11,612 bases of DNA from a virus. This document shows, piece by piece, positions 5,018 through 11,612 of the stretch; positions within the stretch are counted from its first letter, which is position 1; every line of letters starts with the position of its first letter. The notes below the pieces were generated by a model that was not told the DNA's origin, did no database searches, and was given only the letters and a program-made list of their open reading frames with translations. The stretch lies in the UHGV virus genome UHGV-1980575. One strand, written 5' to 3'. Both the position numbers and the translations under genes were made by a program.

Positions 5018-5129
5018 NNNNNNNNNNNNNNNNNNNNNNNNNNNNNNNNNNNNNNNNNNNNNNNNNNNNNNNNNNNNNNNNNNNNNNNNNNNNNNNNNNN
5101 NNNNNNNNNNNNNNNNNNNNNNNNNNNNN
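5018..5129. other. Assembly gap (run of 112 N)
   Basis: Literal n characters in the sequence; every ORF crossing it in the six-frame track is an artefact. Confidence 0.99.
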
Positions 5130-6826: not shown

Positions 6827-7375
6827 ATGAATCACTTGATGGTTGACCTTGAAACAATGGGCAACGGGCCATACGCGCCAGTTATTTCTATTGGGGCAGT
6901 ATTCTTTGACCCGAATACCGGAGAAACAGGAGAAGAGTTCTCGGTAAATATCTCGCTTGAGTCATCAATGCGATATCGGGCGCGTCCTGACGCTTCAACG
7001 ATTTTATGGTGGCTGGAACAGAGTGAAGAAGCCAGAAAATCGCTAACCAGCAACACTCAGGAGCTTTCAACGGCTCTTTCATGGTTATCTGAATTCATCA
7101 TAAAGAACGCTAACCACAAATTCGTTCAGGTTTGGGGGAATGGAGCATCATTTGACTGCGTTATTCTCCGCAACAGTTATTCGCTGACAGGGCAGCCAGT
7201 TCCGTGGCAGTGGTGGAATGACCGCGACGTAAGAACAATCGTCGAACTTGGGAAGGTAATAGGATTCGACCCTAAGCGAGATATGCCATTCAAAGGAACT
7301 CGCCACAACGCGCTTGATGATGCCATTCACCAAGCAAAATACGTTTCAGCGATCTGGAAAAAGTTAGCTAAATAA
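6827..7375 (+). CDS. DEDDh-type 3'-5' exonuclease (DnaQ-like fold)
   Basis: Motifs MVDLET (Exo I), WGNGASFD (Exo II) and HNALDDA (Exo III with His). AAGGA upstream of the ATG. Confidence 0.75.
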   Translation: MNHLMVDLETMGNGPYAPVISIGAVFFDPNTGETGEEFSVNISLESSMRYRARPDASTILWWLEQSEEARKSLTSNTQELSTALSWLSEFIIKNANHKFVQVWGNGASFDCVILRNSYSLTGQPVPWQWWNDRDVRTIVELGKVIGFDPKRDMPFKGTRHNALDDAIHQAKYVSAIWKKLAK

Positions 7376-7391
7376 TCAACAGGAGAAAACC

Positions 7392-7685
7392 ATGCCAGCG
7401 CCTCTGTATGGTGCGGATGACGCGCGCCGCTGTTCCGGCAATTCCGTATCGGAGGTGCTGGATAAATTCAGAAGAAACTACGATCGGATAATGTCGCTAC
7501 CACAGGAAACGAAAGAGGAAAAGGAATTTCGCCACTGTATATGGCTTGCAGAGAAAGAAGAACGCGAGCGAATTTACCAGACATCAATCCGACCATTCCG
7601 CAAAGCCACATATACCCACTTCCCTGAAATTGACCCGCGCCTGCGTAATTACCGCTCACGCTATGGCGCTATCAGTAATGACTGA
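7392..7685 (+). CDS. Hypothetical protein (97 aa)
   Basis: AGGAG is 8 nt upstream of the ATG; co-oriented within the early-left operon. No family recognised. Confidence 0.6.
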   Translation: MPAPLYGADDARRCSGNSVSEVLDKFRRNYDRIMSLPQETKEEKEFRHCIWLAEKEERERIYQTSIRPFRKATYTHFPEIDPRLRNYRSRYGAISND

Positions 7686-7695
7686 GGAATTAACA

Positions 7696-7986
7696 ATGAA
7701 AACAATGAAGCTAAACATCGACCTCGGCAAATACGTTATTACCGGAACCAAACACGACCTGATTCTTAATGAAAGAGGAATTATCAAAGAAGGTGAGAAT
7801 GCAGGGAAAGAAACACTAAGCCGTATCGGTTATTACAGCAAGTTTGAGCATCTGGTCAAAGAGTTATGCAACCGTGAAATCCTGTTATCTCAGGCGCAGA
7901 CGCTACAGGATATTCAGCAGCATATCGAAACTTTAGGTATGTCACTTAGCATGGCTATTGACCAGTTCGTTGAGAGTAAATCATGA
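7696..7986 (+). CDS. Hypothetical protein (96 aa)
   Basis: Start chosen at MKTMKLN, with GAGGA 7 nt upstream; the longer 7546 ORF would overlap the previous gene and lacks an SD. Confidence 0.55.
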
Positions 7987-8150
7987 GAGGACTTGCATAC
8001 AATCCCGGCATTCTTCCGGCAGAAATGATTATTCGCCAACGCGTAAAGCCAATGCCATCGAGAGAGGAATTGCTTAAAAGAAAGAGTTTCGGTTCTGTTA
8101 ATGACAACAAATATCTGAATGCTATGTGGCGCAAAGGAGGCAACCAGTGA
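7983..8150 (+). CDS. Small hypothetical protein (55 aa)
   Basis: Hand-translated [59 protein letters not shown] overlap with the upstream gene, and its stop overlaps the GTG of the next gene (GTGA). Below the ORF-track length cut-off. Confidence 0.35.
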
Positions 8151-8401
8151 GTAATTCAGCACGACTACAGCTTGGTTTTTCACCGCTATCAAAAACTATC
8201 ATGCTGGCAAAAATGCGCGATGTTGAAGGTGGACGTATGCGCGTTGGCAATGATCCAGGTCGTGATGTTACCAATGAGGCTGCTCAATTGGTATGGCGAC
8301 TGGTCATGGCTGAAGGTGGTGAGATCGCGCGGGAGCTGGATGATGGTTCTCGCATGGTGTTGAAGGCAGAAAAGCAGGAGGCAACCAGTGAGCGAAATTA
8401 A
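8147..8401 (+). CDS. Hypothetical protein (84 aa), GTG start
   Basis: AAGGAGG is 6 nt upstream of the GTG at 8147. The listed 8126 start has no SD. Confidence 0.5.
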
Positions 8402-8786
8402 TTACCAGGCACTGCGTGAGGCGGCAGAACGTGCAATTCCGGCAATGGAACGCCTGTTAATGTTGCCAGTTGATGATGATCTGATAAGTGAACAGGAACT
8501 TAAAGATTACGGTGTGGATATTGATGCGCTCAACGCCTTCAAATTTCTGGCCGGACCAGAAACCGTGCTGGCACTGCTGGATGAAATAGAAGCTAAAGAC
8601 AGACGCATTACAGAACTGGAAGCGAGGGAAGTTCAATTACCGACTCGCTACGACCTTCGATATGGGCACCCAATAAATGCTGATAAGCGACATGTCATGA
8701 TACCTAAAGAAAATGGCAGCTGGCTTTGCCTGATTGACTTAGAACACGCACTACGCGTCGCTGGCATTCGCATCAAAGGAGAGTGA
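8388..8786 (+). CDS. Ead/Ea22-like phage protein (132 aa)
   Basis: N-terminus [16 protein letters not shown]... is characteristic of proteins annotated Ead/Ea22-like in lambdoid and P22-like phages (from memory). GTG start preceded by AGGAGG. Confidence 0.6.
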   Translation: MSEINYQALREAAERAIPAMERLLMLPVDDDLISEQELKDYGVDIDALNAFKFLAGPETVLALLDEIEAKDRRITELEAREVQLPTRYDLRYGHPINADKRHVMIPKENGSWLCLIDLEHALRVAGIRIKGE

Positions 8787-9797: not shown

Positions 9798-9891
9798 TTT
9801 ATTTATTCATATATTAAAACAATGTAACCAATATTCGCGGTTTTTTATTGCCTGATTTGCAGGTTCGATTCCCTATTCGGAGATAGCACTC

Positions 9892-10092
9892 ATGCAACAC
9901 GAACTACAACCTGATTCACTGGTTGATTTGAAATTCATCATGGCTGATACTGGCTTTGGTAAAACCTTCATCTACGACCGGATTAAGTCCGGCGACCTGC
10001 CTAAAGCCAAAGTTATCCACGGTCGAGCAAGATGGTTATATCGTGACCATTGTGAATTCAAAAATAAGCTCTTAAGCCGCGCCAATGGGTAA
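9892..10092 (+). CDS. torI: AlpA/TorI-family excisionase (recombination directionality factor, 66 aa)
   Basis: Winged-helix AlpA-type pattern (FIMADTGFGKTFIYDRIKSGDLPKAKVIHGRARWLYRDHCEFKNKL). Length and position next to an argW-like att core match TorI of the KplE1 (CPS-53) prophage; the sequence itself is not remembered, so the symbol rests on context. Confidence 0.65.
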   Translation: MQHELQPDSLVDLKFIMADTGFGKTFIYDRIKSGDLPKAKVIHGRARWLYRDHCEFKNKLLSRANG

Positions 10093-10165
10093 AATAGCGG
10101 GTAAAATATTTCTCACACCTAAAAAACACCATTCTAATCAATCCCCTGCTGCTTCAAGTAGATGT

Positions 10166-10180
10166 CTGCAGGGGACACCA
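10166..10180 (+). other. Candidate attR core: 15-nt match to the 3' end of tRNA-Arg (argW)
   Basis: CTGCAGGGGACACCA has the form of a tRNA 3' terminus (T-stem 3' strand, acceptor 3' strand, discriminator, CCA) and matches the argW 3' end as I recall it. No complete tRNA lies upstream, so this is a duplicated core, not a gene. Confidence 0.5.
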
Positions 10181-10619
10181 GATACCCTTCAAACGATATC
10201 TACCTTCACCCCGTAAAAGATAAGTTTGGCAGCACATTTGCCCTATCTACTCATTTTTCCTGCAACAGGTTGAAATCTCAACACGGTCAGAAAACGCTGA
10301 TGACTAAACAGCCCTGGGCTGGGCGATGTAACCATCACACACAATCCTGATCGCGAAATATGGCGTGACTTGATACTTCACTCCACAATGCTTTCCTTGA
10401 TGAATTCGCAGGCCCGTGATACACGGGACAGGTCGCTGAATTACGACAATGCCCTGGAAATCAGCGAGCCGTGTATCCGGAGTACATTTGAGCGACTGTA
10501 CCAGAACATGAATGAGGCGTTTGGATTAGGCGATTATTAGCAGGGCTAAGCATTTTGGTATTATTATTTTCCGGTTGAGGGATATAGAGCTATCGACAAC
10601 AACCGGAAAAAGTTTACGT

Positions 10620-11612
10620 TTATATTGCTGAAGGTACTGGCGTTTCCATCACTATTTGCTCACGTTTTTTACTCAGGAAGAAAATGCCAAATAGCAACAT
10701 CAGGCAGACAATACCCGAAATTGCGAAAAAAACCGTCTGGTAGCCTGCGTGGTCAAAGAGTATCCCAGTCGGCGTTGAAAGCAGCACAATCCCCAACGAA
10801 CTGGCAATTTGAAAACCAATCAGAAAGATCGTCGACGACAGGCGCTTATCAAAATTTGCCACGCTGTATTTGAAGACGGATATGACACAAAGTGGAACCT
10901 CAATGGCATGTAACAGCTTCACTAATGAAATAATCCAGGGGTTAACGAATAGCGCGCAGGAAAGGATACGCAACGCCATAATCACAACACCGATAAGTAA
11001 TGCATTTTTTGGCCCTACCCGATTCACAAAGAAAGGAATAATCGCCATGCACAGCGCTTCGAGTACCACCTGGAATGAGTTGAGATAACCATACAGGCGC
11101 GTTCCTACATCGTGTGATTCGAATAAACCTGCATAAAAGACAGGAAAGAGTTGTTGATCAAAAATGTTATAGAAAGACCACGTCCCCACAATAAATATGA
11201 CGAAAACCCAGAAGTTTCGATCCTTGAAAACTGCGATAAAATCCTCTTTTTTTACCCCTCCCACATCCGCCGCTACGCACTGGTGTTCCTGATCTTTAAA
11301 ACGCATGTTGATCATCATAAATACAGCGCCAAATAGAGAGACCAACCAGAAGTTGATATGGGGACTGATACTAAAAAATATGCCAGCAAAGAATGCGCCA
11401 ATAGCATAGCCAAAAGATCCCCAGGCGCGCGCTGTTCCATATTCGAAATGAAAATTTCGCGCCATTTTTTCGGTGAAGCTGTCAAGCAAACCGCATCCCG
11501 CCAGATACCCCAGACCAAAAAAGAGCGCACCCAGAATTAAACCTACAGAAAAATTGCTTTGCAGTAACGGTTCATAAACGGTCCGGTCAAGACCAAGATG
11601 AAACTCATACAC
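10620..11612 (-). CDS. cscB: LacY-family oligosaccharide:H+ symporter (MFS), host gene, N-terminus cut by the window edge; probably sucrose permease
   Basis: About 50 percent similar to LacY across the visible 330 aa (FNRVGPKNALLIG vs LacY INRIGGKNALLLA; FEYGTARAWG vs FEFGRARMFG). Context next to an argW att core fits the csc locus of sucrose-positive E. coli. Symbol is context-based. Confidence 0.6.
   Translation of the reverse strand: MYEFHLGLDRTVYEPLLQSNFSVGLILGALFFGLGYLAGCGLLDSFTEKMARNFHFEYGTARAWGSFGYAIGAFFAGIFFSISPHINFWLVSLFGAVFMMINMRFKDQEHQCVAADVGGVKKEDFIAVFKDRNFWVFVIFIVGTWSFYNIFDQQLFPVFYAGLFESHDVGTRLYGYLNSFQVVLEALCMAIIPFFVNRVGPKNALLIGVVIMALRILSCALFVNPWIISLVKLLHAIEVPLCVISVFKYSVANFDKRLSSTIFLIGFQIASSLGIVLLSTPTGILFDHAGYQTVFFAISGIVCLMLLFGIFFLSKKREQIVMETPVPSAI

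Follow-up and report, generated by a model that had tools for sequence, protein, structure and literature searches.

Organization of the attR locus

The window is a stretch of 11,612 nucleotides from the viral genome UHGV-1980575. Many prophages of E. coli match the region examined in it at their right ends with 96 to 99% identity, as does phage HK620. Eag, TorI and, past the core, the sucrose permease CscB are the annotated genes in these matches. A P22/HK620-like prophage sitting in argW has its attR end here, and the locus adds one more ordinary member to the KplE1/HK620 module family; alignments to the attR of KplE1 and the attP of HK620 bear out the initial annotation, which had pointed to KplE1 (CPS-53) and other argW-integrated prophages for comparison. 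The best-matching complete E. coli genome covers 78% of the window, and none contains all of it. A run of 104 N occupies positions 5018-5121. The window ends inside the prophage, and the far prophage end was looked at in the closest complete relative (L161), where argW lies at 7031-7105 and intS at 7267-8424. The order in that prophage is intact argW, then intS and, at the other end, the leader element described below (piece 1), torI, the core and cscB.

Table 1 Features of the attR end in the window
Feature	Position	Strand	Description and evidence
Module left edge	9837-9856	+	Terminator 3' half and T-run (GCGGTTTTTT, as in HK620), then ATTGCCTGAT
Piece 1	9857-9872	+	TTGCAGGTTCGATTCC, 16-nt exact copy of argW nt 46-61
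torI spacer and ribosome-binding site	9873-9891	+	CTATTCGGAGATAGCACTC; ATTCG at 9875-9879, GGAG at 9879-9882
torI	9892-10092	+	Recombination directionality factor (RDF; excisionase), 66 aa; ORF and translation, annotation of RefSeq relatives
TorI-like 8-mer in torI codons 3-5	9899-9906	-	TAGTTCGT; match to position weight matrix (PWM)
P arm of attR/attP	10093-10165	+	73 bp; arm-type repeats, left core-flanking segment AGTAGATGT
Piece 2	10166-10180	+	CTGCAGGGGACACCA, exact match to argW nt 61-75; attR core, pawZ-type pseudo-tRNA fragment
Host chromosome flank	10181-11612	.	Non-coding stretch, then cscB 3' part

At about position 9837 the homology to the P22 eaG type gives way to homology to Kapi1 and KplE1, so this position is the left edge of the mobile recombination module. 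Piece 1 lies approximately 20 nt inside this boundary and belongs to the mobile torI-attP-intS module. The terminator at the module edge is without its 5' half owing to a 37-bp deletion, whose junction was placed by alignment at 9836/9837 and which is unique to the window among approximately 90 E. coli-type copies compared. A terminator search of the window detected none. The protein encoded by the torI ORF is 100% identical to the products of E. coli TorI loci, including TorI of K-12, and is an RDF of the TorI family (AlpA-like winged-helix proteins). On the host side, the 3' part of cscB (ORF at 10620-11612, minus strand) runs off the window; all close matches annotate this flank gene as an oligosaccharide/sucrose MFS transporter.

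Matches to argW and the attachment site

Two segments of the locus match the 3' end of argW, which in K-12 (NC_000913.3) reads ...GGGCTAATTGCAGGTTCGATTCCTGCAGGGGACACCA. Both matches are exact, and the pieces are collinear and on one strand, overlap by 1 nt (one C) in tRNA coordinates and lie 293 bp apart with torI between them. The initial annotation had noticed both matches, their common order and orientation, their contiguity in the tRNA and the torI-like gene enclosed by them. These statements hold, as do its coordinates for piece 2; for piece 1 the match is real, but it had been placed at 9855-9870, 2 nt too low. Piece 1 consists of the last 2 nt of the variable loop, the 5' strand of the T-stem (GCAGG), the T-loop (TTCGATT) and the first CC of the 3' strand. 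As had been stated, no tRNA 5' half lies ahead of either piece. ARAGORN predicted no tRNA gene in the whole window, which contains neither a cloverleaf nor the contiguous acceptor and T-arm halves that define a tRNA gene or pseudogene. A chimeric argW/torI query was run against 5426 complete E. coli genomes; on the torI side, the homology starts precisely at nt 46 of argW. After masking of piece 2, 1000 dinucleotide shuffles of the whole window, counting both strands, gave one case of an exact argW match of at least 16 nt, and the 16-mer occurred only twice in a 48.5-kb relative locus, at argW and at torI, where 0 copies were expected. Given its position near the core, its strand and its abutment to piece 2 in tRNA coordinates, a chance origin of piece 1 is negligible.

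Piece 2 is the already known attR core of the KplE1/CPS-53, HK620 and Sf6 module, the site of IntS strand exchange. The duplicated core of 16 nt is CTGCAGGGGACACCAT (PMC2951348); in the window 15 of its 16 bases are found unchanged, and the 16th is a host-derived G (T in K-12). The equivalent in K-12 is annotated as pawZ, an argW pseudo-fragment at the right end of the cryptic prophage CPS-53/KplE1. IntS arm-type repeats (GGGTAAAA) are located at 10087-10094 and 10099-10106, and IntS arm-type sites are known to contain TAAA (PMC2951348). In relatives the left core-flanking segment is TTCGATGT, which is T-loop-like and stands in the same register as the tRNA T-loop TTCGATTC. The torI-attP-intS module is common to KplE1, HK620, Sf6 and CUS-3 (PMC2951348), and the same arrangement is present in Kapi1 (PMC8787464). 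An attR of 135 bp, amplified with the left primer CTCTTAAGCCGCGCCAATGG, recombines in vitro (PMC3509656). This primer maps to window positions 10069-10088, 197 nt 3' of piece 1, and since an attR without piece 1 recombines, piece 1 is dispensable for excisive recombination in vitro.

Conservation of piece 1 upstream of torI

The identical 16-mer is present at equal distance to torI in the KplE1 attR of K-12, the HK620 attP, Kapi1 and SW07096. In the literature on KplE1, HK620 and Kapi1 (PMC2951348, PMC3509656, PMC8787464) we found no description of it; Panis 2007, Menouni 2013, Clark 2001 and Casjens 2004 may mention it. Piece 1 is a real conserved detail and apparently an undescribed one, K-12 included.

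TorI homologues of about 60 to 100% identity (lowest 59%) were collected from contigs representing one genome per species, from IMG/VR and from an assembly index. The alignment scan of IMG/VR yielded only 100%-identical E. coli copies, and diverged single-protein queries reached the others. Every relative with flanking DNA that was examined (word-based protein search, at least 59% identity) has an argW-type core. A block cagGTTCGATTyCc precedes the torI ATG by 15 to 18 nt in 18 diverged lineages (24 nt in Serratia), among them E. coli, Enterobacter, a Citrobacter type, Serratia, several Pantoea, Edwardsiella, Hafnia and P. stewartii. Its family-wide conserved core is CAGGTTCGATTCC (9860-9872). 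Within it, GTTCGATT (9863-9870) and a C two bases 3' are invariant in all 18 motif-bearing lineages, an invariance that is inflated inasmuch as these lineages were counted because they carry the motif. For comparison, 14% of the third codon positions of torI are invariant in the same 18 lineages, with a mean pairwise identity of 59%. Free variation among the relatives is seen 5' of CAGG and in the spacer leading to GGAG. At shorter range, the 88 E. coli-type copies showed only singleton variants within 9857-9872, with common polymorphisms adjoining piece 1 at 9850 (G/A, 25%) and 9873 (C/A, 9%). Piece 1 is thus conserved far beyond neutral expectation.

About one third of the TorI lineages are without the motif (Cronobacter, a Klebsiella type, Tatumella, Rouxiella, Arsenophonus, Proteus and several Pantoea), and piece 1 is therefore not essential. 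These lineages have unrelated DNA upstream of torI, and Dryocola shows a clean deletion; partly decayed copies of the motif were seen in none of the lineages examined. Tandem duplications of the motif occur in three lineages, with units of 17 nt in L128/L129/L131 (CAGGTTCGATTCCCGT CAGGTTCGATTCCCAT), 13 nt in L125 (GTTCGATTCCCGC GTTCGATTACCAGC) and 13 nt in L010. Since the unit lengths differ between lineages, the duplications arose independently.

Resemblance to TorI binding sites

The TorI sites I1 to I5 in the P' arm of attL are the 8-mers CAGTTCGC, CAGTCCGC, CAGTTCGT, TGGTTCGC and CAGATCGT, and mutation of their GTTCG, GTCCG or GATCG abolishes them (PMC2951348). The promoter of intS (PintS) has been mapped in the same arm, and I4 and I5 mediate its repression by TorI (PMC2951348). 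Piece 1 holds GTTCG (9863-9867), the pentamer of sites I1, I3 and I4, and its GGTTCG equals the central hexamer of I4. When scored with a PWM derived from the five K-12 sites (8-mer consensus about CAGTTCGY), the window 8-mer AGGTTCGA reached 3.84 bits, which is within the top 1% of 8-mers, compared with 8.2 to 11.4 bits for the validated sites; the upstream sites of relatives scored 5.4 to 8.6 bits. The minus-strand 8-mer within torI (Table 1) fits the TorI consensus strongly, at 9.34 bits, a value attained by only 8 sites in the window. It is inverted with respect to piece 1 and specific to the E. coli lineage, codon 4 of torI being Q or N in relatives.

Relatives carry a second TorI-like 8-mer over the ribosome-binding site, namely CAGTCCGG, CTGTTCGG or TAGTTCGG, which in E. 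coli is degenerate (CTATTCGG). The two 8-mers of such leaders follow a period of 12 nt. The leader of L126 combines CAGTTCGA (8.6 bits) with CAGTCCGG (7.0 bits), and AGGTTCGA is paired with CAGTCCGG in L130, with CTGTTCGG in P. stewartii and with TAGTTCGG in L010. The base following GTTCG is always A in the motif of the torI leader and C or T in I1 to I5. The invariant ATT after GTTCG fits a tRNA or IntS site and not the TorI consensus. Because the segment left of the core in relatives shares its register with the T-loop, the comparison suggests that the core-binding domain of IntS may read TTCGAT, and IntS would be an equally good candidate binder as TorI.

Origin of the two argW pieces

The exact tiling of the two pieces on argW in the E. 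coli type invites an explanation that was one of two offered by the initial annotation, namely a contiguous tRNA segment interrupted by insertion of the excisionase module. The relatives contradict it. In Serratia (L012) and Pantoea (L015) the motif runs on as ...ATTCCTG, like the tRNA, and in Edwardsiella and P. stewartii it forms a full hairpin, ACAGG-TTCGATTC-CCTGT. The ancestral element would thus have been a whole T-arm including the 3' strand of the T-stem, overlapping piece 2 in tRNA coordinates. Because relatives keep this strand, which is the start of piece 2, the pieces are best read as two overlapping partial copies and not as one split copy, and an insertion scar was rejected on these grounds. 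The exact tiling in E. coli is, by this comparison, apparently a later, lineage-specific change (CCTG to CCCTAT). A simple gene insertion between the pieces is also contradicted by the intervening DNA, because it holds a whole functional P arm, that is, half an att site. As for an earlier integration, we infer that no legitimate series of IntS reactions, tandem integrations included, would yield a T-arm directly upstream of torI. A contiguous arrangement of the argW 5' half, piece 1 and torI was found in 0 of 5426 complete E. coli genomes, and remnants with torI alone inside argW, as would be left by deletion between the two 16-nt repeats, were likewise found in 0 of 5426.

A candidate operator of torI

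The position, conservation and duplication of piece 1 are consistent with its being a candidate operator, derived from the T-arm or mimicking it, for TorI and/or IntS and controlling torI, the likeliest of the readings considered, although we regard it as evenly balanced between right and wrong. Candidates for binding it come from the module itself, namely TorI and/or the core-binding domain of IntS. TorI is a candidate in that its mapped sites are built on GTTCG, GTCCG or GATCG and piece 1 carries GGTTCG; IntS is one in that its core-binding domain must recognize the same T-arm sequence in attB. By binding beside or over the ribosome-binding site, such a protein would restrict or time production of the excisionase, presumably the step that decides excision in the KplE1/HK620 module. 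Panis et al. concluded that excision in this module is controlled through expression of the RDF, which was then uncharacterized (PMC2951348). The ultimate origin of piece 1 may have been a copy or a mimic of the T-arm of attB.

What is conserved is primary sequence, because no conserved RNA pairs were predicted by RNAalifold (0 in 17 torI leaders), no Rfam match was obtained for the torI leader beyond an 11-nt T-loop fragment (E=1.7), and no sigma-70 promoter was found upstream of torI in the window or in HK620. We tentatively raise the more specific and rather doubtful possibility of an 'attB mimic' operator, in which the module would have set a copy of the T-arm of its own chromosomal target before the excisionase gene and through which the proteins that read the T-arm, the core-binding domain of IntS and/or TorI, would also set the level of TorI. 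As a corollary of this last reading, the T-loop of argW could itself be a sixth candidate site for TorI in attL. The distance from its GTTCG to I1 is 31 bp, the mapped sites being 20, 43, 10 and 10 bp apart, and it stands roughly in helical phase with them. The GTTCG-type RDF sites of the family may even all descend from the tRNA T-loop.

Alternative explanations

Piece 1 might instead be a passive relic with no present function, left when torI and the P-arm block were inserted into a longer argW 3' segment or remaining from an old integration junction. The exact tiling in the E. coli type, the in vitro excision without piece 1 and the many lineages without the motif, one of which has deleted it, all agree with such a relic. 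Tandem occupancy of argW does occur, too, as in Hafnia (L156), where torI and the core are directly followed by a second, P4-type integrase. However, the tiling is confined to one lineage, the ATTCCTG or full hairpin of the relatives overlaps piece 2, and after a simple insertion the ancestral arm sites would no longer be where they were, whereas a whole P arm is in place. Schemes of tandem integration would put the T-arm beside core-P'-intS and would require an additional precise deletion, and the genome search recovered no contiguous argW 5' half, piece 1 and torI. GTTCGATT is invariant in lineages whose synonymous sites are near saturation. The lack of decayed copies, the three independent tandem duplications and the fixed distance to the torI start likewise speak against a relic, which we consider unlikely, though not remotely so. 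The relic of an earlier integration, the other option of the initial annotation, thus stands as a possible ultimate origin, but as a passive remnant it leaves the invariance, the duplications and the fixed distance unexplained. A promoter activated by cII for 'phage integration', with piece 1 as its spacer and the likeness to the tRNA incidental, is improbable. It has in its favor that the GenBank record of HK620 (Clark et al. 2001) marks TTGCCTGATTTGC as a cII-binding site and 39 nt over piece 1 as a PI-like promoter (the two annotations occupy L001:1902-1940 and 1903-1915), and that the window prophage has a CII-family protein according to the annotation of relatives. Yet the first TTGC of this repeat is TTAC in 25% of the 88 E. 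coli-type copies and in K-12, and the second is TTCC, TGAC, TTAC or TCAT in relatives, next to the invariant GTTCGATT. The canonical cII site of lambda and P22 is TTGC-N6-TTGC and straddles the -35 region. The repeat at the present locus is TTGC-N5-TTGC, and with its wrong spacing and repeats that are not conserved it was rejected as a cII site. There is no conserved -10 element, any start site would have to lie at the ribosome-binding site or past it, the module is exchanged among phages whose cII genes differ, and the match of 16 of 16 nt to argW would be left unexplained. Moreover, a separate promoter has been mapped for intS within the P' arm (PMC2951348).

Control at the RNA level, by a T-arm mimic or by UUCC/GGAG pairing in a read-through mRNA that would affect translation or processing of torI, is very improbable. 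In most lineages, pairing of UUCC or UUUCC with the GGAG(A) located 4 to 7 nt 3' of it is possible, and Edwardsiella, P. stewartii and Serratia retain a T-arm-like hairpin of 4 to 5 bp. The E. coli version, however, is without the 3' strand of the T-stem, the possible helix masking the ribosome-binding site has only 4 bp and is broken in L125, and a structured RNA leader was rejected on the RNAalifold and Rfam results given above. Finally, piece 1 could resemble a generic T-arm by chance. The family-wide core GGTTCGATTCC(C) resembles other T-arms as well, GGTTCGAnnCC being near-universal in tRNAs; in E. coli, the T-arms of glyU and glyT presumably carry GGGTTCGATTCCC and those of tRNA-Lys and argU GCAGGTTCGAATCC. 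Against this stand the 16 of 16 match to argW on the same strand and near an argW-derived core, the single match in 1000 shuffles of the whole window and the two copies of the 16-mer in the 48.5-kb relative locus with 0 expected, and such a coincidence is extremely improbable.

Comparison with known systems

The closest known counterpart is KplE1 (CPS-53) of K-12, organized as argW-attL-intS ... torI-attR(pawZ). Its TorI is identical, its P arm and arm-type repeats are the same, 15 of the 16 core bases are shared, and an identical 16-nt piece 1 is found at the same distance upstream of torI. In contrast to the window, a P22/HK620-like prophage end beside cscB, KplE1 is a 10-kb defective remnant beside dsdC; the window further differs in its truncated terminator upstream of torI and in the G at the 16th core position. 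The attP region of HK620 (xis/torI-attP-int; also Sf6, CUS-3 and Kapi1) shares 98.7% identity over eag-torI-core and an identical piece 1. Unlike that of the window, its terminator preceding torI (L001:1879-1898) is intact, and the cII-site and PI reading given to the piece 1 region in the HK620 record is unsupported by conservation.

With the TorI sites I1 to I5 (Panis et al. 2007, 2010) piece 1 shares GTTCG and, in its GGTTCG, the centre of I4, relatives possess two 8-mers of consensus grade ahead of torI, and the operator formed by I4 and I5 at PintS is a precedent for TorI as a repressor. Piece 1 differs from these sites in lying upstream of torI and not in the P' arm, in its flanks (A after GTTCG, then TTCC) and in the spacing of motif repeats, which is 12 to 17 nt as against 10 or 20. 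Piece 2 is exactly the kind of duplicated tRNA 3' fragment represented by attR pseudo-tRNA pieces such as pawZ. Piece 1, unlike them, was not made by integration: it lies inside the phage module, corresponds to the part of the tRNA 5' of the crossover and is carried in the attP of free phage genomes (HK620, Kapi1).

Implications for excision control

Even if piece 1 were a relic, its analysis corrects the tempting misreading of an exact tiling as an insertion scar. The argW phages (KplE1, HK620, Sf6, CUS-3 and Kapi1) have uncoupled int and xis genes, and whether they excise is believed to depend on how the RDF gene is expressed; a description of control of torI in cis was not found in the KplE1, HK620 and Kapi1 literature (PMC2951348, PMC3509656, PMC8787464). 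A conserved element that abuts the ribosome-binding site of torI and is duplicated in relatives offers a concrete candidate for such an operator, and one that is present in K-12 too.

Attachment core and putative protein-binding sites

In most relatives (L012 from Serratia, L015 from Pantoea, L013, L125, L126 and L128), the attP segment adjoining the core on the left reads TTCGATGT(A), which resembles a T-loop and is in register with TTCGATTC of argW. At this position, GTAGATGT is found in the E. coli type. The segment is probably the left core-type site of the integrase IntS. On the other side, the base following ACCA (window 10181) is G, as in other cscB-flanked prophages, versus T in K-12 and attP. 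This limits the identity at attR to 15 nt instead of 16 and puts the crossover left of window 10181. Small ORFs were called over the core, hkaB in HK620 and a 62-aa ORF in the window. They vary with the flank, the latter extending into host DNA, and are unlikely to be real genes.

In K-12 attL, the argW T-loop GTTCG is separated by 31 bp from TorI site I1, and the spacings beyond I1 are 20, 43, 10 and 10 bp, all five being roughly in helical phase. Site I1 with its flank (CAGTTCGCTCCCAT) is similar to the T-arm-like motif located upstream of the excisionase gene torI (CAGGTTCGATTCCCAT). The argW T-loop may be a previously unrecognised, putative TorI site in attL.

Coordinates of the features discussed
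Feature	Location	Strand	Remark
Run of N	window 5018-5121		104 N, mid early-left region
37-bp deletion	window 9836/9837		counterpart L001:1852-1888 (HK620 attP region)
TAGTTCGT, near-consensus TorI 8-mer	window 9899-9906	minus	9.34 bits; inside torI codons 3-5, inverted
Segment left of core, E. coli type	window 10157-10165
62-aa ORF	window 10162-10350	+
hkaB	L001:2140-2280		HK620
K-12 attL	L004:861-979		
Hafnia element	L156:2501-4134
vB_EcoS-733R5 argW region	L003:1076-2512

Other elements and sequence records

Immediately beyond torI and the core, the Hafnia chromosome has a second P4-type integrase, together with a Phage_P4_cII gene. The two represent a satellite-like element that integrated in tandem at the attR of the prophage. 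The record of phage vB_EcoS-733R5 holds a complete argW beside cscB, with a different integrase immediately upstream and convergent with argW. Here the argW locus is used by a further element, from its opposite side, and this "phage genome" record contains host DNA. Enterobacterial-type TorI (85-92% identity) was also encountered on two contigs, L011 and L028, whose labels assign them to MAGs of Actinomycetes and Parachlamydiaceae; on both, the same T-arm-like motif lies upstream of torI. This DNA probably comes from enterobacterial prophages, through mis-binning or contamination. The run of N in the window is an assembly gap or a masked stretch, and ORFs called across it are unreliable.

Sequences around the start of torI

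Only eight 8-mers in the window reach the score of TAGTTCGT, this site included. Within torI it occurs in the E. coli lineage only, where codon 4 is GAA. The argW T-arm copy lies on one side of the ribosome-binding site and ATG start codon of torI, and this minus-strand 8-mer on the other. Further upstream, 37 bp are missing that are present in HK620 and all other E. coli-type copies examined. Through this deletion the intrinsic terminator ahead of torI has lost its 5′ half, and more transcription from the early-left operon might therefore read through into torI in the window prophage.
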